Shown one piece after another: positions 8,418-63,095 of a stretch of DNA of 64,000 nt; the first letter of the stretch is position 1, and every line of letters starts with the position of its first letter. The notes under the pieces are model-generated. The model was given only the letters and a program-made list of their open reading frames with translations, made no database searches and was not told where the DNA came from. Origin of the DNA: Chiloscyllium plagiosum (Eukaryota); the NCBI RefSeq assembly GCF_004010195.1, contig NC_057718.1, positions 83,434,503 through 83,498,502 of the forward strand. The letters are read 5' to 3'. The translations under genes were made by a program, and so were the position numbers.

Positions 8418-8704
8418 CTGGGGGTTGCAGTGAGATCTTCGTAGAGAGAGGAGGAGAACTTCTTCAAGGCAAGCATTCTTGCAAGAGGTTTCGCAGTAAG
8501 GTTAAAATCAACTAGGCAAAAGTGAGGACTGCAGGTGCTGAAGATTAGAGTCAAGATTAAAGTTATGTTGGAAAAGCACAGCAGGTCAGGCAGCATCAGA
8601 AACATCAATTTTCCTGTTCCTCAGATGCTGCCTAACCTGCTGTGCTTTTCCAGCACCACTAATCTTGACTCATCTCCAGCATCTACGGTCCTCACATTCG
8701 CCTA
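8418..8704. mobile_element. Penelope-derived palindromic repeat (centre deleted)
   Basis: Inverted arms 8514-8607 and ~8620-8704 (agtgaggactgcaggtgctgaagat ... atctccagcatctacggtcctcac); same family as the copies at 41658, 54436 and 62925. Confidence 0.7.
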
Positions 8705-8809
8705 ACAGTAGTTTGTGGCTAGTTTTGGAGGAGGTTGAAGTACCTGACTTCAAGATCCTGAGGTGGTAGTAATAAACAGATTCTTCTTCAAATCATGTGT
8801 TTTTAAGCT

Positions 8810-29051: not shown

Positions 29052-31700
29052 TAGAGTTATAGAGATGTACAGCATGGAAACAGACTCTTCAGCCCAATCC
29101 GTCCATGCCGACCAGATATCCCAACCCAATCTAGTCCCACCTGCCAGCACCCAGCCCATATCCCTCCAAACCCTTTCTATTCATATACCCACCGAAGTGC
29201 CTTTTAAATGTTGCAATTGTACCAGCCTCCAACACTTCCTCTGGCAGCTCATTCCATACACGTACCACCCTCTGCGTGAAAAAGTTACCCCTTAGGTCTC
29301 TTTTACATCTTTCCCCTCTCACCCTAAACCTATGCCCTCTCGTTCTGGACTCCCTGACCCCAAAGAAAAGACTTTGCCTATTTACCCTATCTATGCCCCT
29401 CATAATTTTGTAAACCTCTACAAGGTCATCCCTCAGCCTCCGATGCTCCAGGGAAAACAGCCTCAACCTGTTCTGCCTCTCCCTATAGCTCAAATCCTCC
29501 AACCTTGGCAACATGCTTGTAAATCTTTTCTGAACCCTTTCAAGTTTCACAACATCTTTCTGATAGGAAGGAGACCAGAACTGCATGCAATATGCCAAAA
29601 GTGGCCAAACCAATGTTCTGTACAGCCGCAACATGACCTCCCAAGTCCTATACTCAATACTCTGACCAATAAAGGAAAGCATACCAAACGCCGCCTTCAC
29701 TATCCTACCTGCGACTCCACTTTCAAGGTGCTATGAACCTGCACTCCAAGGTCTATTTGTTCAGCAACACTCTCTAGGACCTTACTGTTAAGTGTATAAG
29801 TCCTGTTAAGATTTGCTTTCCCAAAACGCAGCACCTCGCATTTATCTGAATTAAATTCCATCTGCCACTTCTCGGCCCATTGGTCCATCTGAACAAGATC
29901 TGAAGTAACCTTCTTCACTGTCCACTACACCTCAAATTTTGTCTCATCTGCAAACTTACTAACTGTACTACTTATGCTCGCATCCACATCATTTTTGTAA
30001 ATGACAAAAAGTAGAGGACCCAACACCGATCCTTGTGGCACTCCACTGGTCACAGGCCTCCAGCCTGAAAAACAACCCTCCACCACCACCCTCCGTCTTC
30101 TATGTTTGAGCCACTTTTGTGCCCAGATGGCTAGTTCTCCCTGTATTCCGTGAGATCTAACATTGCTAACCAGTCTCCCATGAGGAACCTTGTCGAACCC
30201 CTTACTGAAGTCCATATAGATCACATCGACCGCTCTCCCATCATCAATCCTCTTTGTTACTCCCTCAAAAAACTCAATCAAGTCTGTGAGACATGATTTC
30301 CCATGCACAAAGCCATGTTGATTATCCCTAATCAGTCCTTGCCTTTCCAAATACATGTACATCCTGTCCCTCAGGATTCCCTCCAACAACTTGCCCAACA
30401 CCAACGTCAGACTCACTGGTCTATAGTTCCCTGGCTTCTCCTCACTACCCTTCTTAAAGAGTGGCACCATGGTAGCCAACCTCCAGTCTTCCGGCACCTC
30501 ACCTGTGACTATCGATAATACAAATATCTCAGCAAGAGGCCCAGCAATCACTTCCCTAGCTTCCCACAGAGTTCGAGGGTAAATCTGATCAGGTCCTGGA
30601 GATTTATCCACCTTTATGCATTTCAAGACATCCAGCACTCCCTTCCCTGTAATATGGACATTTTGCAAGGTGTCACCATCTATTTCGCCACTTTCTGTAT
30701 CTTCCATATCCTTTTCCACAAAATACACGTTTAGTATCTGTCCCATCTCCTGTGGCTCCACACAAAGGGCGCCTTGCTGATCTTTGAGGGGCCCTATTCT
30801 CACCCTAGTTACCCTTTTGTCCTTTATGTATTTGTTAGTGGGCGGCACAGTGGCACAGTGGTTAGCACTGCTGCCTCACAGCGCCAGAGACCCGAGTTCA
30901 GTTCCCGTCTCAGGCGACTGACTGTGTGGAGTTTGCACGTTCTCCCCGTGTCGGCGTGGGTTTCCTCCGGGTGCTCCGGTTTCCTCCGACAGTCCAAAGA
31001 TGTGCAGGCCAGGTGAATTGGCCATGCTAAATTGCCCGTAGTGTTAGGTAAGGGGTAAATGTAAGGGTATGGGTGGATTGCGCTTCCCAGCATTCCCTAT
31101 ACCTACCAGCCTTTCCTTTCACCCTGACAGGAATATACTTTCTCTGGATTCTTGTTATCTCATTTCTGAAGGCTTCCCATTTTCCAGCCGTCCCTTTACT
31201 TGCGAACATCTGCCTCCAATCAGCTTTTGAAAGTTCTTGCCTCATACCATCAAAATTGGCCTTCCTCCGATTTAGAACTTCAACTTTTAGATCTGGTCTA
31301 TCCTTTTCCATCACTATTTAAAATCTAATAGAATTGTGGTAGCTGGCCCCACTGACACCTCAGTTGCCTGCTCTGCCTTATTTCCCAAGAGTAGGTCAAA
31401 TTTTGCACCTTCTCTAGCAGTTACATCCACGTACTGAATCAGAAAATTGTCTTGTACACACTTAACAAATTCCTCTCCATCTAAACCCTTATCAGTATGC
31501 AGCCCCTGTCTATGTTTGGAAAGTTAAAATCCCCTACCATAACCACCCTATTATTCTTACAGATAGCTGAGATCTCCTTACAAGTTTGTTTCTCAATTTC
31601 CCTCTGACTATTAGGGGGTCTATAATACAATCCCAATAAGGTGATCATCCCTTTCTTATTTCTCAGTTCCACCCAAATAACTTCTCTGGATGTATTTCCA
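29052..31700 (-). mobile_element. CR1/HER1 LINE (endonuclease remnant, RT, 3' end), interrupted by a SINE
   Basis: ORF 29925-30848 with [43 protein letters not shown] 31481-31672 with GLYYRPPNS and MVGDFNFP (APE endonuclease). Confidence 0.95.
30835..31087 (+). mobile_element. HE1/V-type SINE, 3'-truncated, nested in CR1
   Basis: gggcggcacagtggcacagtggttagcactgctgcctcacagcgccagagacccgagttc head. Confidence 0.92.
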
Positions 31701-41657: not shown

Positions 41658-41885
41658 CTGTCGAGCGTGTGGTGCTGGAAAAGCACAGCCGGTCTGGCAG
41701 TATCTGAGGAGCAGGAGAATCGACGTTTCGGGCATAAACCCTTCATCAAGAATGTTCATTTCTGATGAAGGGCTTATGCCCGAAACATCAATTTGCCTGC
41801 TCCTCAGATGCTGCCTGACCTGCTGTGCTTTTCCAGCATCATGCTCTCTACTCTGATCTCCAGCACCTGCAGTCCTCATTTGCTC
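41658..41885. mobile_element. Palindromic Penelope-derived mini-element with hammerhead cores and 14-bp TSD
   Basis: Inverted arms centred near 41755; TSD caaaattggaatta at 41644-41657 and 41886-41899. Confidence 0.85.
41762..41789 (+). ncRNA. Minimal hammerhead ribozyme core
   Basis: CUGAUGA-A-GGGC(UUAU)GCCC-GAAAC-AUC; the mirror copy on the minus strand (41722-41749) reads UUGAUGA-A-GGGU(UUAU)GCCC-GAAAC-GUC. Confidence 0.6.
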
Positions 41886-43104
41886 CAAAATTGGAATTAT
41901 TATAAGTTTTGTGATCATTTTTCCAAGCAAAATACAAAACCGATAGAAAATGCAAAATATCACATGGACCAGAGACTTTATGCCAAAATTCAAAGTTTAC
42001 CAATCATTCAAGTTCACGTCATGTAGATGAGATACGCATCGGATCACTCCTAAATCTCATCAGTTTACATTTTAATTCAGTTAGCTCCTTAAAGTTCCAA
42101 AGCTGGTACCTGCTGAGATCTGTCTACAAGTAGTAAATCATAAACACTGTTCTTTTGCAAGATTCCACTGAGTTGCAGAAGTCTGTTTGAGTGATCCTAT
42201 TATCACGTAAAAGCAATTTTTGTAACTTTGTAACCCCAGGGCTAAGAATGATTCTGCAAGTCCGATGACTTTACACTGCTGCTTTGATGGCCTTAATTTG
42301 GGGCAAACAGAAGATGCTACAATCTCCATGAAGACTGTTAACATTTAAAGACAATTTTGAAGTGATTAATAGGAATAACTATCACAAAATTTCATGTCTT
42401 AACTAAAACTTTACCTGAAAAAAATAAACAAAGCATGCACTATTGCCTTAACACTATCGGTGGTCAAGCCTACCATAAACCCAGCGTTCCTCCAACTTCC
42501 TAATTCTACTCAATATGCTACCGGACCTTGAGGGTTCATTTACTCCACTTTATACCACGGTTCTCTGGAATTAATTTGGATTTCTATCACTGATTTAACT
42601 ATTCTTCAAGGTGCAAGTTTTTTTTGGAACCCTTCCACTACCACTTGATTAAAGGACCTTCCAAGATCCCAAAATATTATCAGGTTACAGCTATTGCAGT
42701 GTCTGGTGGCCATCAGCCATTAATATATCCTTTCATAACATTATTTAAATGTGCAAGAGTAAGGAATCTAGGATGAGATACTTAATTGTGATTTCTGCAC
42801 TGATGATGATGATGATGATCAGGTCCACAGCAACCATACAGTAAAATTAATTTCTGCTGTGCAACACCCAAACGATCATGATCTTTGTGAGACTTGCAGA
42901 AGAAATTGCTGCTAATGGTTGGTAGGAAGGCAGAATGAGAAACTGCTGACATCAGCACATCAGACACTTATTCAAGTTAAAACTCAAATGCAAAGAACTG
43001 CATAAACAAATTATTTTAAAAAAAACACTTCAACAGATATTGCCTTATTCATGCAACAAACAATTTATACGCAGGGTGTTCAGAAAAGCAAAATACCCAT
43101 TTGT

Positions 43105-49074: not shown

Positions 49075-49522
49075 GAGGGTACATACATAAGAGAGAAATC
49101 AGGAGGGCAAAAAGGGGACATGAGATAGCTTTGGCAAACAGGGTTAAGGAGAATCCAAAGGGACTGCACAAATACATTAAAGACAAAAGGGTAACAAGGG
49201 AGCAAACAGGGCCCCTGAAAGATAAGCAAGGCAGCCTGTGGGTGGAACAGCAGGAGATGGGTGAGATACTAAATGAGTATTTTGCATCAGTGTTTACTGT
49301 GGAGAAGGACATCTATTTCCTCACAGAATGTGAGGAAATAGATGGCGACATCTTGAAAAATGTCCATATTACAGAGGTGGTGTTGCTGGATGTCTTGAAA
49401 CGCATAAAAGCGAATAAATCCCCAGGACCTGATCAGGTATACCCTAGAACTCTGTGGGAAGCTAAGGAAGTGATTGCTGGGCCCCTAGCTGAGATATTTG
49501 GATTATCATTAGTCACAGGTGA
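49075..49522 (+). mobile_element. CR1 ORF2, left part, split by the ERV
   Basis: ORF 49131-49556 is CR1-like ([16 protein letters not shown]...LVTG) up to the LTR junction. Confidence 0.9.
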
Positions 49523-50175
49523 TGAGGATCTGAAACCTGAATACAGGCTGAGGTAACTAGCTGTTGTCAGGATCAACCGCTTAATAGGTGTTCTTAATAA
49601 CTTAGGTGGCAGTAAAATGGCTCAATGCAAATAGCATGACAAAATGGCTTCTCGGCTGCAAATTGACAAATCTGCTATAGCTGCATAACTGACTAACCAC
49701 AGTCTGCTTCAATAGAGGAGATTAGCAGATAATGTTCCCTTTACAGCATAGAAATAACCAGACTAGATAAGACATTACTGGCCATCCTAACTGATCTTCA
49801 GATGCAGATGCAAAGGCTCGGTTAGTGAGATAAGGGTGGCCTGTGTGTTGGGAAAAAAAAGTTGGTTGCCAGGAAATATTACTGGATCAAGTAACTGTCA
49901 AATAACATAACATCGTGTATCGATTGGTAATTGTTTGATGTACTGTGATAATAGCCTGTACCCTTCTTTAAGTTAAATATAAAAATGTCTTTGTTTTAAG
50001 CCATGCGTGCAGCTCCTCAGAGGAAGACGGGTGCACACAACCTCTGTGTTTCTGGATGCTCTGTACCCGGCCGTTTGAAGTAATAAAGAACCAGATTGAT
50101 TGTGAGTACTTATTGACCGATCACAGAACAGAACAGAGAACCTCCCCCCCCAGCCCGGGGACTCAAATTCGGTCA
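49523..50175 (+). repeat. 5' LTR
   Basis: Starts TGAGGATCTG, ends GGTCA; TATAAA at 49978-49983, AATAAA at 50082-50087; direct repeat of 55955-56852. Confidence 0.9.
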
Positions 50176-50178
50176 AAT

Positions 50179-50188
50179 TGGCGTTGTC
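50179..50188 (+). promoter_or_regulatory. Partial primer-binding site, tRNA-Ser-like
   Basis: TGGCGTTGTC begins after a 3-nt spacer behind the LTR end; one mismatch to the recalled tRNA-Ser PBS TGGCGTAGTC. Confidence 0.5.
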
Positions 50189-50550
50189 TAAATTGATTTC
50201 CAAATTATTCTGTGAAAGACAAAACAAAGAAACATTGCGATATATTATAGCAAGACTGTCAGGGTTTTAGAACGTTGAGGATGTTTTGCAGAAATCATTA
50301 GTCTTGTTGTTCGTTGTCGGGTTGTTGATTAGTGGAGTTTTAGAATTATCTTCTCTGTTGTATCTGTTTGGCTTGTCTGGTTTGTCTGCTATGGTTTTGT
50401 CTGCTTGTTTTGTTTTTTTTTGTTTATGAAATATAGAGGGTGGTTGCTGCTTATGTCACATTAAAAGAAGAAAGCTGGCCAGTAATACAATTCTCTCACA
50501 CTCGGTTAAGCAGCTATTTGCCACAGCCAGGATTTATGAGACTTAACTCC

Positions 50551-50647
50551 CTAACTTTGACTGTTCTGGAATGCGAGTGCCCCACTAACTTTGACTGTTC
50601 TGGAATGTGAGTGCCTCATTACCCTTACAATGTTCCTGTGTGCGTGC

Positions 50648-50695
<48 letters not shown>

Positions 50696-50697
50696 GA
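50551..50697. repeat. 31-bp direct repeat (50551-50581 and 50585-50615) and (GA)n microsatellite (~50650-50697) in the ERV leader
   Basis: ctaactttgactgttctggaatg(c/t)gagtgcc twice; gagaga run. Confidence 0.9.
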
Positions 50698-52109
50698 CTC
50701 AAGTGTTGATTCCCTGCTGCTTGCAGAAAGTTTAACCTTTTGAGATTCGGTTTGAATGCACATTTGCTTGTTGGTGATTGAATGTTTGTATTTTGTTGCC
50801 TGGAGCTTGAGGTCCAGGACTGTTTTGAATTTGATTTGCATTTTGGGGATTTAACATGATTTCTTTTAAGGTTAAGGATCCATCAGTGATTATGAAATGA
50901 AATATTAACCCCTGTTCTTCTTACAAGCCATGACTGCCCTACTGCCAATTTCTAACCAATCACTTTTATGCTTACATGAAAGCTAATCTTATTTAATTTC
51001 AAATCAGTTTAATATGGAGAAAGATGACATTGTAATTTTTTTAAAAACATCTTCTCCTTTGATTCTGCACCATTTGACATCAGTATAAACTTACCCTCAA
51101 ATTCCCTATAATTTCATTCTACTGCCAAAGGTCATTTTCACTCCTCTTACCCTTACGTGTTGTACTAATGAAAGAATTGACTAAAGGAAGTAAAGCAGCA
51201 GCACTAAACCTGGGCCTCAGGTGCATGATCATTCTGTTCCAGGATGACAGCAAGTCTCTGCTCAATTTTTGTTATAATCTAAACTTAACATTGACGAAAA
51301 TCACTTCAGACTTTAACATTTGCTCACTGAGTGGATGAATTGTATGAGCCTTACTTAATTTAGTTAAACTTTGTAAAACTGGAAATATAAAGATAGATCC
51401 AAATATCCCAAACCAACAGCATTGTTTTCAGAAAATGATACTAGCAGATTTAAATTTTTGTTTCAGATTAGTTTGTTTCCACTTAAAGACTGCTGTGTTT
51501 CATTGGTGATTATAGTATGCCAGTCGTAGCTTTATTTTCTATCAATTCCCTTCCCTCAATAAGGATAGAAGTTTCAGTTCAACATTATGTCTTGATAAAT
51601 CATGTTACAAAATTAACATCCTATTTTTAACATCTGTGTCTTTAGATTCAGCAATTATTCATGCATTAGAAGGTTTTTTGTTACCATGTGAGTAGACAAC
51701 GCCTTTTAAGGCAGCTGCAGTCATTTCACGGCCTACAGCATTGTAAATGAGCAATGACTGGTCAGGACCACTTAAGGAACCTAGTCTGGGATTTAAATTA
51801 AAGGACTAGAACCAGGTAATTTTAATGGATTTCAGAGTTGGAAACTATATATTTTACATTTAACTATTGAATACTGGATAAATGAATTTTCAGTTTATAT
51901 TGATGACTTTTAAAATGTCGTAGTCATTTGTTCAGTTTCCACCTCTGAATTAGATATGATGATATTTTTAAAAATTATTAATTGTATTAGACCTGAATCA
52001 CAAAATCAGATGTAATTGGTAGAATTGCTTGGTTTTATTCCTTTACACATTGTCAGTGACCTGTCTCATTGCTTCATGGTTAATTTGAAGCATGACTGCA
52101 TTAATTCGT

Positions 52110-52900
52110 TGCTAATGAAAGAATGGAAAGATACGTTCCTGGCCATTTGATGAAATTCTGCATGTGATTGGGGGATGGAGGTAAGTATAGCAGATGGAAC
52201 TCCCAAAAGCTGGGAGATGTTCATAACTGACTGTAATTGGGTAGATGAAAAAAAATAAAAGGAACATGAGATTAAAAAAATAAAAGGGACATGAGATACA
52301 GTCTAAGGCCACTAAGGCTGAAGAATGTACAAACAGGTTAAAGCAACACCACTGTAAAATAAAGAACTTAGATTTTACTTGGAATCCTGAGCCTATGTAT
52401 GGCATACCGACCCTATTTGAGGATGGGGATTTTAATCCTGGATACCCGCTGAGCCCCTAACATCTCCTGACTGTCCCCAGCACATGCTTCCCCCCCCCCC
52501 CCCCCCCATTACAAATGTCTCCTTCTTTTGAAAATGAAGCATCCAGTCTTCATAGCTGATATCATGGGGACGAGCGGCCTGAGCCATCCTAAACCAGGGC
52601 CTATCCCGGGAATTAGAGCAATGTTAATGAAGCATGTCCCTGATCGCAAGAACAAACCGGCCCAATTTGCTCAATATGTCCAAGGGTGATACAGATGTAA
52701 ATGCACCAAAATTCTGGGAGTGGCTTGTATTATGTGAATATATGTGAAATATGTGGCTGTCTGTCTGATGGAAGTGGTATACAATTGAAAAAATAATCAA
52801 GAAGCTCAAATGACCTTTATTTTAACCCTATGCTTTTGCAATGTTTTCCTCCTGGTGTCACTGACATAATTCAGACAAACAATATGAACTAGGAATTTCC
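52110..52900 (+). pseudogene. Possible gag remnant
   Basis: WPFD matrix-like motif at 52140 and a poly-Pro run ending PPHY (PPxY late-domain-like) at 52490-52512; otherwise unreadable. Confidence 0.4.
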
Positions 52901-52979
52901 AGTCGCAAATGAAGCGAATAGTGGTTTTCTATTGGAATGGCCAGAACCAGACTGAACCATGATGTAAGTTACAGGTAAA

Positions 52980-53940
52980 ACCGATTATATCCAGTGCCCT
53001 TGCGATCCCAAATGCCATGTGCCAGCCCTGACAGGGCTGATTGGGACCAAGTCACTAGGGGTGGAACATACCTCAGATGCCCACCAGCGACCACTAAGCA
53101 ACCTTTTCCTGAGGGGACCCTGGAAATGGGGACAGGCAAACCCCAGTATTACACCTTTGACACTTTAAGCAAGACAGCAAAATCTTTCAGGGACAAATGG
53201 CTGACCCATGCTTTAACTGTGGAAATGTGGCCACTGGGGAATGATGTGTCTTTAATGTTACCTTGGAGCTAATGTGGGGATCGACATGCTTGTGTCCTAG
53301 CAAAAGGAAAATCTGCTAATATACACTGACTCTTAGTTCTGCTTTTGGTGTGACCCACGATTTGGGAGCCTTGTGGGCACATGCAGGGCTTTTAACCTCC
53401 ACGGGGCAGCATAATAGTAATGCTGTTTTGTCCAATCAATCGGGCAGTTATCAAGATGTTCAGCTCACGATACCACTGATAGTTTCCAAAGTAATGAGCA
53501 GGTCGATGCTGCTGCCAAGCAGGCAGCCTTACACCCTAAAGTTCTGGTCCCACTGGGCCCCTAGCAAAACATGGATAGAGACAATATGGGGATAGGTATG
53601 CCAGAGCTGGATAAGGTACAAAATTACAGGGGGAACCCACTGCTGAAGAGCACAAACTATGGCCTCAAATAGGGTACCCCCTCGATACTCAAACCAAAAT
53701 ATGGGTGACCCCTACTGGACAAGTTTGTGTTCCTTTTTTGCTGCTGCCTATTATAGTTGATTATTTGTATTATTGTACATACTTGGGCAAGGAGGGAACG
53801 GTTTATACTCGATTACAATGGACACGTCGCGACCGCCAACCTCGATGGGAGGGGCCCTTTCAGGTTCTCCACACCATCCCTACTGCTGATAAGGTTGCCA
53901 GGCACGTCCATCATTGCAAGGTCATCGCATGTGCCCCATG
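52980..53940 (+). pseudogene. pol: pol remnant: RNase H, integrase N- and C-terminal pieces; RT and integrase core deleted
   Basis: ACVLAKGKSANI/YTDS/AFGVTHDLGALWAHAGLLTSTG (53285-53410, frameshifted), NEQVDAAAKQAA (~53493-53528) and PRWEGPFQVLHTIPTADKV...HVHHCK match gamma/epsilon-type pol motifs. Confidence 0.85.
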
Positions 53941-53964
53941 CAAAGGTGGTGGTGGGGGGAAGAG

Positions 53965-55800
53965 GTGAAGAAAATCGAACTTACCCTGTTATGTGGACTC
54001 GTCGTTATTGACATTTGTGCTCAAGAAGGGACTATTTACCAGTGTGAACCTGAGTAACCAGAGACTGTGTACCATTTAGGCCAAAAAGATGTCATTGTGT
54101 GCTAAGAGACTGATTCCTTCGATGCATGGAATATTACCAAGAATGACTGCTGCAATGGTCAACTGCATCAAGATGATCGGACAGTTTGCTTACAGGACAA
54201 GTCTCAATGGTCTTTACCCTGACAAGGTGTTTCATGCTAGTTTGATTTCAATTGTGCCATGGCGGTCCTAGTAAGCCTTGCCCCTACCCAAAGAGGTCTA
54301 AATCTGCACGCCACAAAAGAGAAAAGGGGGAAATGCCATCTTTCACTAATAATTTCTTTTTTCAAAGTCACAACAAAATATTCAGTTGGGATGAAGTGAT
54401 CTGTTACACCCTCTCATCAGCAAAGGACTCCTTGAGCTGAAAATGTGTTGCTGGAAAAGTGCAGGTCAGGCAGCATCCAAGGAGCAGGAGAATCGACATT
54501 TTGGACAAGAGCCCTTCTTCAGGGATGAAGAAGGAATGCCCGAAACATCGATTCTCCTGCTCCTTGGATGCTGCCTGACCTGCTGCGCTTTTCCAGCAAC
54601 ACATTTTCAGCTCTGATCTCCAGCATCTGCCGTCCTCACTTTCTCCTAAAGGACTCCTTGACCCCTTTCCCCCTCCCAAATCCCAATGACGGAGTATGGA
54701 ACACTTCTAAGACATTTACCGGACATAATGTTTTTTTTCAAATGTACTAACTGCTACTGCTCCCCTGTGGGGCCTCGCATTATTACCGGTGTTCAGGTTC
54801 TTTGTGGTAAGAGTGATGGCACCCACCTTCACTATGAGACTCCTAATGGCACCTCCATCTTCCCAATTGTGGGATGGAAGGAACCAGTCTGGGACAATAA
54901 CTGCATCTCTTACTAAAAGACGTACCTCTTTTTATTGAGCAGCTTTCGCCCTAAGCGCCCAGGGCGACCATACTTTGTAGCCATGGACTACCCATACGTT
55001 TAGGTAGTCACAAAGACAGGCCTGCGTCTTACTGGGAAGCCCCCTCCATTATCTATACCAAACCCGGTTACTATTTTCTCAGCCAAGGCAGAGCGACCAA
55101 CTTCCTTGTTCTTGATGAAATAGGTACTTCCCATGCTGCAACTGTAGGGACACTTTTTCCCGACTACTGTTCCCTGTCCAACAATCTGGGAATGGGGTTG
55201 GGGTTTCCCTCCCACATGTTCAGTTTCACCTGAATTCTGCGTGCATTGGAGAGGTGCTAAGGCCTTGGGAACAGTAAAGCTCAATCTACGGGCTACGCAT
55301 TTCTTAGTACTTTTTCCTTAGGAAGATCTGCAAGAATTATTAGCCATCTAAACCAAAACTATTTTATTTGCAGTCTCACCCTCGTGGGCAACGAGACAGC
55401 CTCGGCCTTAGCAGGAGTTAAGGACATGCTCTCAGAATTACATCTATTTTCCCAGCAAAGCCGGTAAACCCTCAACTACCTACTCGCCAAAGTGGATGGG
55501 GTTTGCGCCATAGTAAAGGGCAAGTGTGTGATGGGGGTTATTGACCTCATTGAGAACATTACCAAGCATTTAGATAACATCCGCACCTTCGTCAATCAAA
55601 TGACAGAAAGCACTAGATGGGGAGATTGAGGTTTTGGCTCATGGTACAATTGGTTGATAAATCTGTCTATGTATATTAGTATTATTTTAATTTGTCTCTT
55701 TGCTGGCATTGCTATTGTTAAATGTATTATTGCCAAGCTAAAATTTTCTGTTGACAAAATCGGCTTCCCCCCAGAAAATGCTTCTTCTCCGTCCAAATGA
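53965..55800 (+). pseudogene. env: env remnant (class I fusion glycoprotein with filovirus-GP2-like TM)
   Basis: Signal-peptide-like start KIELTLLCGLVVIDICA; TM frame 55261-55800 with heptad repeat, immunosuppressive-domain-like R*TLNYLLAKVDGVC, CX6C, Trp-rich juxtamembrane segment and membrane anchor; stops at 55465 and 55627. Confidence 0.88.
54436..54647. mobile_element. Palindromic Penelope-derived mini-element inserted in env, 14-bp TSD
   Basis: TSD aaaggactccttga at 54422-54435 and 54648-54661; inverted arms each with a degenerate hammerhead core. Confidence 0.88.
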
Positions 55801-55942
55801 AGGTGAGGAGGAGAGGTTGCCTACCCCTACTTTGTCTGAGGAGGAGGAGGAGTAGGAGGAAGTATGGCAGTTTCTAGTATCCATTCAATTGGATTGATCT
55901 AATCTAAGCCGTCTCATCCTATGGTGTGGTCATGGAATGACC

Positions 55943-55954
55943 AAAGGGGAGAGA
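55943..55954 (+). promoter_or_regulatory. Polypurine tract
   Basis: AAAGGGGAGAGA directly before the 3' LTR. Confidence 0.8.
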
Positions 55955-56852
55955 CGAGGATCTGAAACCTGAATACAGGCGGAGGTAACTAGTTGTCAGG
56001 AACAACCGCTTAACAGGTGTTCTTAATAATGTAGGTGGTAGTAAAATGGCTTCTCAATGCAAATAACATGACAAAATGGCTTCTAGGCTGCAAACTGACA
56101 ATTCTGCTACAGCTGCATTATTGACTAACCACAGTGCTTCAACAGAGATTAGCAGACAATGCTCCCTTCACTGCATAAAAATAACCAGACTAGATAAGAC
56201 ATTACTGGCCATCCTAACTGACCTTCAGATGCAGCTGCAAAGGCTCAGTTAGTGAGATTAAGGTGGCCTGAGTGTTGGAAAACAAAGTTGGTTCCCAGAA
56301 AATATCACTGGACCAAGTAACTGTCAAATAGTGCAATATCGTGTAGATTAGATTACATTACAGTGTGGAAACAGGCCCTTCAGCCCAACAAGTCCACACC
56401 GACCAGCTGAAGCGCAACCCACCCATTCCCCTACATTTACTCCTTTACCTAACACTATTGGCAATTTAGCATGGCCAATTCACCTGACCTGCACATCTTT
56501 GGACTGTGGGAGGAAACCGGAGCACCCGGAGGAAACCCACGTAGACACGGGGAGAATGTGCAAACTCCACACAGACAGTCGCCTGAGGCGGGTGTATCGT
56601 TTAGTAATTGTCTGAATGTACTATGCGATCATAGCCTGTGCACTTCTATAAGAAAAGTATAAAAATGTTTTTGTTTTAAGCCATATGTGCAGCTCCTTCA
56701 AGGAATACAGATGTACACAACCTCTGTTTCCGGATGTTCTGTACCAGGCCGTACGAAGAAATAAAGAACGAAGCCTTAGAACCAAACTGATTGTGAGTGC
56801 TTATTGACCGATCACGGAACAGAAAGACCGCCCTCCGGGGGTCCAAGGCTTC
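55955..56852 (+). repeat. 3' LTR, interrupted by a SINE
   Basis: Direct repeat of the 5' LTR; TATAAA at 56658-56663, AATAAA at 56760-56765; exact right end uncertain. Confidence 0.88.
56346..56591 (-). mobile_element. 5'-truncated HE1/V-type SINE inside the 3' LTR
   Basis: Absent from the 5' LTR; flanked by the TSD gtgta (56341-56345 and 56592-56596). Confidence 0.93.
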
Positions 56853-57405
56853 GAGATGCTGGAAGACTGAAGGCTGGTGAACGTGGTGCCACTATTTAAG
56901 AAAAGTGGTAAGGGAAAAACAGGGAATTACAAACCGGTGAGCCTGACATCAGTGGTAGACAAGTTGTTGGAGGGAATCCTGAAGAACAGGATTTATATGT
57001 ATTTGGAAAGGCAGCGATTGATTCGGGACAGTCAATATGGCTTTGTGCATAGGAAATCATGTCTCACTAACTTGGCTGAGTTTTTTGAACAAGTTACAAA
57101 GAGGATTGATGAGGACAGAGCACTGGACGTGATCTATATGGACTTCAGTAAGGCGATCGACAATGTTCCTCAGGGTAGACTGCTTAGCAAGGTTTGATCA
57201 CATGGAATACAAGGAGAACTAGCCATTTGGATATAGAACTGGCTTGAAGGTAGAAGACAGAGGGTGGTGGAGGGTTGCCTCTCAGACTGGAGGACTGCAT
57301 CCAGTGCTGTGCCACAAGGGTCGGTGCTGGGTGCACTGTTTTTTGTCATTTATATAAATTATTGAATGTGAACATAGGAGGTATGGTTAGTAAGGTTGCA
57401 GATCC
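56853..57405 (+). mobile_element. CR1 ORF2, right part, continuing the copy split by the ERV
   Basis: Resumes at gatgctggaagactg; ORF 56877-57197 NVVPLFKK...GNYKPVSLTS...YMDFSKA. Confidence 0.9.
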
Positions 57406-62924: not shown

Positions 62925-63095
62925 GTGTGGTGCTGAAAAAGCACAGCCGGTGAGGTAGCATCTGAGGAGCAGGAGAATCGACGTTTCGAGCATGAGTTCT
63001 GATGAAGAGCTCATACTCAAAATGTCAACTCTCCTACTCCTCAGATGCTGCCTGACCGGCTATGCTTTTCCAGTACCACATTTTTTGACTCTGAT
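62925..63095. mobile_element. Palindromic Penelope-derived mini-element
   Basis: Inverted arms around ctgatgaagagctcatactcaaaatgtc; same family as 41658-41885. Confidence 0.8.

Follow-up and report, generated by a model that had tools for sequence, protein, structure and literature searches.

We analyzed a 64-kb stretch of Chiloscyllium plagiosum DNA (hereafter, the window) in which an LTR-bounded provirus occupies positions 49521-56824, and the fusion-loop stretch described below falls within its decayed env. The 5′ LTR (49521..50133, forward strand), which sits inside a LINE fragment, pairs in self-BLAST with 55953-56345 (88%) and 56592-56824 (79%). The polypurine tract and 3′ LTR, recognized from the sequence and by self-BLAST, span 55943..56824 (forward strand; the LTR itself is 55953-56824), with a repeat insertion at 56341-56592 dividing the LTR in two. 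The K2P distances between the 5′ and 3′ LTRs were 0.10 and 0.16 for the two blocks; dating from these distances with a per-generation shark rate (PMC10587355) was dropped, as the resulting age was implausible. Because the flanks of the provirus (49168-49522 and 56853-57403) match neighbouring segments (30835-30499 and 30500-29946) of a single LINE copy in the window, we conclude that it integrated into a LINE. Reverse transcriptase fragments (Pfam RVT_1), probably from LINEs, were also present at 1259-1786 and 29928-30875 (minus strand), and no tRNA genes were found in the 64-kb window.

The gag-pol region (50200-53800) is short and badly decayed, with most of the reverse transcriptase and the integrase core apparently gone. 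We take 53100-53560 to carry RNase H-like motifs; Pfam gave no match in five of six gag, RNase H and integrase read-throughs, this segment included. A pol remnant at 53801..53911 (forward strand) resembles the integrase C-terminal domain (Pfam MLVIN_C, E = 2.1e-5), its 24.6 bits falling short of the curated cut-off of 29.2. The env gene follows from about 53980 to 55800 and is disrupted by stops, frameshifts and an inverted-repeat insertion; this copy is a dead, multiply broken fossil from which no protein is made. Contigs from three organisms covered 54650-55950 (428, 538 and 392 contigs, most at 85-95% identity), and these hundreds of contigs indicate that the env family is multi-copy.

The env reading begins with a signal-peptide-like start and a Cys-containing N-terminal extension, now broken (53980..54258, forward strand; tblastn with residues 4-102 of the intact relative P0004, E = 2.4e-5, and residues 22-59 of P0014, E = 1.6e-8). 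A motif scan identified a furin-type RHKR at 54309..54320 (forward strand), which shares a frame with the SU core start downstream and marks the boundary between extension and SU core, not the SU/TM site. An extension of about 100 residues that contains Cys and ends in a basic motif before the SU core begins was observed in the window (53980-54320), P0004 (1-140) and P0115 (45-160); in P0008, P0012 and P0106, SU begins directly after the signal peptide without such an extension. The SU core start (54327..54437, forward strand; tblastn with P0014 residues 112-148, E = 1.5e-6) has one conserved Cys (54402) and lacks a CXXC. None of the six family relatives scored, P0115 being outside the count, had the CXXC isomerase motif at the SU start. 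Pfam returned no match for the SU piece of the window, and in the ESM Atlas the N-terminal extension and SU fall in generic Env clusters without a structure. An inverted-repeat, MITE-like insertion of no assigned strand (54434..54650), detected as a self-inverted match with copies at 41668-41890, 62926-63095 and 8513-8705, interrupts SU. The C-terminal strands of SU are read in frame 1 at 55039..55159 (forward strand; tblastn with P0004, P0006 and P0007), with a frameshift at their end.

The initial annotation proposed that two cysteines at 55238 and 55369, about 44 codons apart and separated by one frameshift near 55260, enclose a fusion loop. Both codons were confirmed, at 55238 in frame 2 and at 55369 in frame 1; they lie 131 nt (43.67 codons) apart, which corresponds to 44 residues across the break, and the peptide SVSPEFCVHWRGAK followed by GLGNSKAQ...NQNYFIC reads as originally given. 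The break at about 55260 was also recovered, but it is not the only one, as a second lies at about 55155-55160. Based on tblastn against relatives, 55039-55159 is read in frame 1, 55160-55260 in frame 2, and 55261 onward again in frame 1. The second frameshift, at about 55157, thus places the first Cys within a 100-nt frame-2 island flanked by two breaks. According to the alignments of relatives, this island (55160..55260, forward strand) comprises the SU end with an extra Cys (55175), a broken SU/TM cleavage segment (PTC) and the first loop Cys (55238). One independent contig (run X12, record 13) matched 55106-55319 with a single difference and no gap, indicating that the frameshifts are real and not assembly errors; among the variants listed, paralogous contigs vary in length at 55154-55157.

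Such an arrangement raises the question of whether the first Cys appears only by chance, in a frame that is not that of the gene, with env running in frame 1 throughout and carrying in-frame stops. In favour of this reading, no stop interrupts frame 1 between 55012 and 55230, a Cys codon of that frame occurs at 55255, and one gapped tblastn hit joins frame 1 over the whole segment. However, when 55160-55262 was compared with ten elasmobranch-type relatives, frame 2 scored above 1000 of 1000 shuffles against nine of them (for P0005, 40 of 1000 shuffles were as high), whereas frame 1 did so against none; in frames 0 and 1, at least 22 of 1000 shuffles scored equally high in each comparison. Against the more distant Tapajos, Mab-Env2, Mengla and Marburg sequences, frame 2 of this segment gave no signal. 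An ungapped alignment to P0109 further equates Cys 55238 with the first loop Cys of that relative. The shuffle comparison and this alignment refute the frame-1 reading, which we regard as almost certainly wrong. Frame 2 is the homologous frame of the first Cys, and intact relatives hold both cysteines in one frame.

With the first Cys assigned to frame 2, the window contains a Cys-bounded internal fusion loop of 44 residues across the break (55238..55371, forward strand), with Cys spacing as in relatives and a hydrophobic core at 55291-55323. The segment GYAFLSTFSLG is the hydropathy peak within the frame-1 part of the loop, although the peak is modest (Kyte-Doolittle 0.96 per 11 residues) compared with 1.1-2.0 in the loops of intact relatives, where it lies 13-22 residues past the first Cys. 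Relatives were collected by phmmer using the frame-1 TM piece with stops written as X, which yielded 99 hits. Named proteins among the best hits were Envs of Heterodontus, Mobula, Pristiophorus, Hemiscyllium and Chiloscyllium, followed by the Tapajos and Mengla virus GPs. A profile search added Leucoraja and Scyliorhinus Envs, and a word-seeded search for longer homologs, itself a weak search, found none. Judged by these relatives, the host would be a shark or ray. Long env ORFs of the family are annotated as uncharacterized in the genomes of skate (P0109/P0111/P0112), catshark (P0115/P0117) and sawshark (P0012/P0108).

Among 41 family rows, 15 had no immunosuppressive domain (ISD) anchor and 4 were truncated, leaving 22 usable, of which 20 show both cysteines. 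This count becomes 19 of 21 after P0014 is dropped, in which the gene model carries a deletion and the apparent first Cys is there by chance. Considered as clusters, both loop cysteines lie in one frame with a spacing of 40-44 in 11 of the 13 elasmobranch-type clusters that reach both positions; P0017 is without the second Cys, and P0011 is without the first owing to a short deletion. The spacing is 44 in the window, P0004, P0005, P0109 and P0115, 45 in the Mengla and Marburg GPs, and 36-38 in five avian-type hits. The two cysteines also tend to occur together: a Cys 36-51 residues upstream was present in 20 of 21 phmmer hits with the second Cys versus 10 of 46 without it, counts drawn from the 99 hits after excluding 32 that lacked the anchor or were too short, and in which related rows are not independent. 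Of 13 family representatives, 10 have no Pro in the loop core, but all five avian-type hits and both the Mengla and Marburg GPs have one. An AlphaFold2 model of P0004 had a mean pLDDT of 48.6 and drew the loop mostly as helix, and Foldseek with this model gave no match at E <= 0.001. Two further proteins were noted in passing: P0101 of the pocket mouse (Perognathus) has an avian-type Cys-flanked loop with CX6CC, and the Anolis Env P0060 has a 49-residue loop without the third Cys.

The absence of an intact furin site just upstream of the loop, as originally reported, was borne out, since no R-x-x-R occurs in any frame from 54960 to 55320. Among the relatives, 10 of 13 representatives carry an Arg exactly 7 residues ahead of the first Cys, and the other three are gene models cut or altered at that place. 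Only 3 of the 10 with this Arg (P0006, P0007 and P0109) carry a canonical furin-type R-x-x-R at the presumed SU/TM site; of the remaining seven, six have a basic P5 and then three residues that are not basic, and the seventh has a dibasic end. The suggestion that PTCS is a decayed basic site thus holds for its position, with PTC in the window filling the cleavage columns of the relatives' Arg without a basic residue, but mostly fails as regards an R-x-x-R motif in the family. As to whether both cysteines and an upstream R-x-x-R share one frame, the cysteines do in 11 of 13 clusters, but most relatives have no R-x-x-R. Given its presence in only these three relatives, cleavage at the presumed site is something we infer. 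We presume that the non-canonical motif of the relatives resembles SKI-1/S1P sites. Ebola GP can do without its furin site, which the authors of that work tie to the internal loop (PMC11294727), and this fits the relaxed cleavage motif of the elasmobranch family.

No cleavage site was found directly before the hydrophobic stretch; the relatives' basic residue is 7 positions before the first Cys, and the core begins 18-26 residues after the Arg. This position of the site, read from the sequence, together with a core well downstream, indicates that the fusion element is internal. An RSAR at 55324 was considered as a cleavage site and rejected, lying inside the loop past the core with no counterpart in relatives. 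An ordinary gamma-type TM with an N-terminal fusion peptide would instead be cut inside the loop just ahead of the core, leaving the first Cys on SU. The lack of R-x-x-R at the upstream site in most relatives would agree with such a cut, as would a single Arg within the loop shortly ahead of the core in P0004, P0005 and P0115. However, the 40-residue subgroup has no inner Arg, the upstream Arg keeps its fixed distance in 10 of 13 representatives and is canonically furin-type in the three named above, and 36 of the 46 hits without the second Cys are also without the first. We consider this alternative very improbable, and an internal loop closed by the two cysteines remains the preferred reading.

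Downstream of the loop, 55372..55530 (forward strand) contains HR1 with an N-glycan sequon (55390), the ISD with one stop, and CX6C (55504-55527); the Pfam match to Ebola-like_HR1-HR2 (E = 0.0036) is below the cut-off. The sequon at the HR1 start is shared by the window and the family rows, P0017 excepted. The ISD of the window aligns with that of filovirus GP2, and intact relatives match both TLV_coat and Ebola-like_HR1-HR2 in Pfam. The TM membrane anchor (55663..55731, forward strand) was identified by translation and aligns with the anchors of relatives. The cytoplasmic tail, at about 55760-55890, breaks near 55764; beyond this break it is read in frame 2, includes an acidic stretch and resembles that of Chiloscyllium P0015.

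The third Cys of CX6CC is missing from the window and from all 25 family rows having the motif. In Ebola virus, this residue forms the C53-C609 link (PMC3347318, PMC11294727). Without it, SU and TM of the family are probably not disulfide-linked, and we regard the family as a variant that would function in the manner of the avian gamma-type/filovirus-type Env, without counting it as a member of that type. An extra Cys lies near the SU end, about 20 residues upstream of the first loop Cys (55175 in the window). As a Cys-Pro, it is found in 9 of 13 family representatives, in Tapajos GP and in Mab-Env2, and the extra Cys is absent from all seven Cys-loop proteins that retain CX6CC. We slightly favour an intra-SU bond between the N-terminal SU Cys and this SU-end Cys, combined with non-covalent association of SU and TM. 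The number of SU cysteines is even in three family members and odd in three, and this mixed parity lends the proposed pairing no support. In the P0004 model (pLDDT 48.6), the SU segment 196-392 matches the GP1 core across 83-90 residues with a Z of 3.9-4.8, which is under Z 5 and serves only as a lead; if it holds, SU Cys190 would lie close to where C53 sits, with Cys390 at the adjacent end.

The same cysteines could in principle be wired differently, with the SU-end and N-terminal SU cysteines bonding both TM cysteines, so that inter-subunit bonds replace the third Cys and the internal fusion segment is left unclosed. Four conserved cysteines allow three pairings that no structure separates, and the extra SU Cys, so close ahead of the first loop Cys, is present only where the third Cys is missing. 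Nevertheless, the loop cysteines have the position and spacing seen in filovirus and avian-type proteins, which pair them and have no extra Cys. Both loop cysteines are also retained in the Anolis Env P0060, where the third and the extra one are missing. In the weak structural match, the ends of the P0004 SU core (196 and 392) coincide with the two ends of the GP1 core, bringing Cys190 and Cys390 close together. We therefore judge this alternative wiring improbable and retain a loop closed by its own two cysteines.

To place the family among known Envs, we compared the TM piece of the window with the PDB. Filovirus GP2 was the best match (E = 1.2e-13, compared with 6.7e-4 for syncytin-2 and 0.34 for ASLV TM), and its columns correspond one by one to those of the window at the second Cys, at the HR1 glycan site and in the ISD. 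The intact relative P0109 matched GP2 at E = 1.9e-17, the similarity beginning about 10 residues before the second Cys, and the first half of its loop had no detectable sequence similarity to GP2. The first Cys therefore corresponds to Ebola C511, which together with C556 closes the EBOV loop (PMC11294727), by spacing and not by alignment. The family also resembles Ebola, Marburg and Mengla GP1,2 in loop length (44 versus 45 residues), the HR1 glycan site after the second Cys, the ISD, CX6C, a surface subunit without CXXC, and a weak fold match between SU core and GP1 core (Z 3.9-4.8, from a low-confidence model). In contrast to GP1,2, it has no third Cys, and hence no C53-C609 equivalent, its loop core is usually without Pro, the first half of the loop is unalignable, and its context is retroviral.

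In a 40-row TM tree, the TM piece of the window sits with Envs of sharks and rays, within an elasmobranch clade of 14 rows (94/94; subclade 95/91). This clade is weakly linked to Tapajos GP, Mab-Env2 and one other Env (73/97). The free tree did not place it with Mengla and Marburg, the two such GPs sampled, and such a placement was not rejected either (p-AU 0.407, with the bootstrap not fully settled). Nino Barreat and Katzourakis (2024, PMC11521997) placed cartilaginous-fish ERV ectodomains as sister to Ebola, Cueva, Marburg and Dianlovirus GP2 (posterior 0.83), and also paired Tapajos GP with lizard elements. Our family is very likely the same clade as their cartilaginous-fish elements. The two agree in host group (theirs from Chiloscyllium, Scyliorhinus, Amblyraja and Leucoraja; here with Leucoraja and Scyliorhinus relatives), in LTR-bounded ERV context and in filovirus GP2 as best viral match, while two Leucoraja protein ids were not found in the supplements searched. 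Their section on these elements treats the heptad/ISD ectodomain only, without the fusion loop, the cleavage motif or the missing third Cys, and in the text searched the word "fusion" occurs only in the reference list.

The avian gamma type (ASLV and other alpharetroviruses) was defined in a study that in 2013 gave the Cys-closed internal fusion loop as a feature of avian retroviruses only (PMC3758190). Cys-flanked fusion peptides have since been described in bat CHIRalphaEnv (PMC13568524) and frog AnERV3/AnERV6 (10.1101/2024.07.05.601823). Our family shares with this type a fusion peptide flanked by two cysteines a few residues past the cleavage site, the HR1 glycan and an SU without CXXC. 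It differs in its longer loop (40-44 residues versus 36-38 in the five avian-type hits), CX6C instead of CX6CC, a mostly non-canonical cleavage motif and a separate clade in the TM tree. Tapajos GP, which ranks above the Mengla and Marburg GPs in phmmer, and Mabuya Mab-Env2 have both loop cysteines, no third Cys, the extra SU-end Cys and a single N-terminal SU Cys, as in the family, but their loop is 38 residues long, they have one or two more residues inside CXnC, and they carry an R-x-x-R site. A fish Env survey (10.1101/2021.11.23.469661) includes a subtype called CXnC and, in a supplementary figure, a map of Cys-flanked peptides, which may already cover this family. We found no description of a Cys-bounded loop in sharks or rays in the literature searched, which lay mostly outside the subscription journals.

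Taken together, the stretch is highly probably the SU/TM junction of a dead cartilaginous-fish ERV env of avian-gamma/filovirus-GP2 type with a Cys-closed internal fusion loop. The Ebola/ASLV-like architecture put forward in the initial annotation is thus supported at the sequence level by relatives in which the two cysteines share a frame and a basic residue precedes the first by 7 positions, and by a second Cys aligned to the loop-closing Cys of filoviruses. In a working ancestor, the precursor would most likely have been cut after that basic residue, as judged from relatives. By homology to EBOV C511-C556 and to ASLV, the two cysteines would form a disulfide closing the 40-44-residue loop, whose Gly-rich hydrophobic tip would insert into the target membrane, and HR1 and HR2 would then fold into the class I hairpin. 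The N-terminal SU Cys, which links SU to TM in Ebola virus and ASLV, would here, slightly more likely than not, pair with the extra SU-end Cys. ALV requires low pH (PMC9967133), and by analogy the chances that entry was triggered by low pH in endosomes are about even; no sequence feature predicts such a trigger here, and the loop has 0 to 2 His residues depending on the protein, giving no sign of a pH sensor.

The loop architecture and the filovirus link of the clade are already known, and the family adds anatomy, not a new system. It is set apart by having this loop in a cartilaginous-fish host, by CX6C throughout the family together with the extra SU Cys, and by the relaxed cleavage motif. 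The known range of the Cys-closed internal fusion loop, in 2013 avian (PMC3758190) and later extended to bats and frogs, now includes cartilaginous fish. More tentatively, and against our own leaning, shark and ray ERVs may keep the whole donor-type envelope behind filovirus GPs (a GP1-like core, the Cys-closed loop and the heptads) along with a further Env architecture, in which SU and TM associate non-covalently, the freed SU Cys is clasped to the new SU-end Cys and a non-furin protease cleaves the precursor, a wiring common to Tapajos GP and Mab-Env2. The occurrence of the loop in a clade of ERVs that has been put forward as the sister of Ebola/Marburg GP2 suggests that the loop arrived with the ectodomain and was not born in filoviruses. 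Loss of the third Cys throughout the family would provide natural gamma-type Envs that function without an SU-TM disulfide, which bears on the purpose of that bond.
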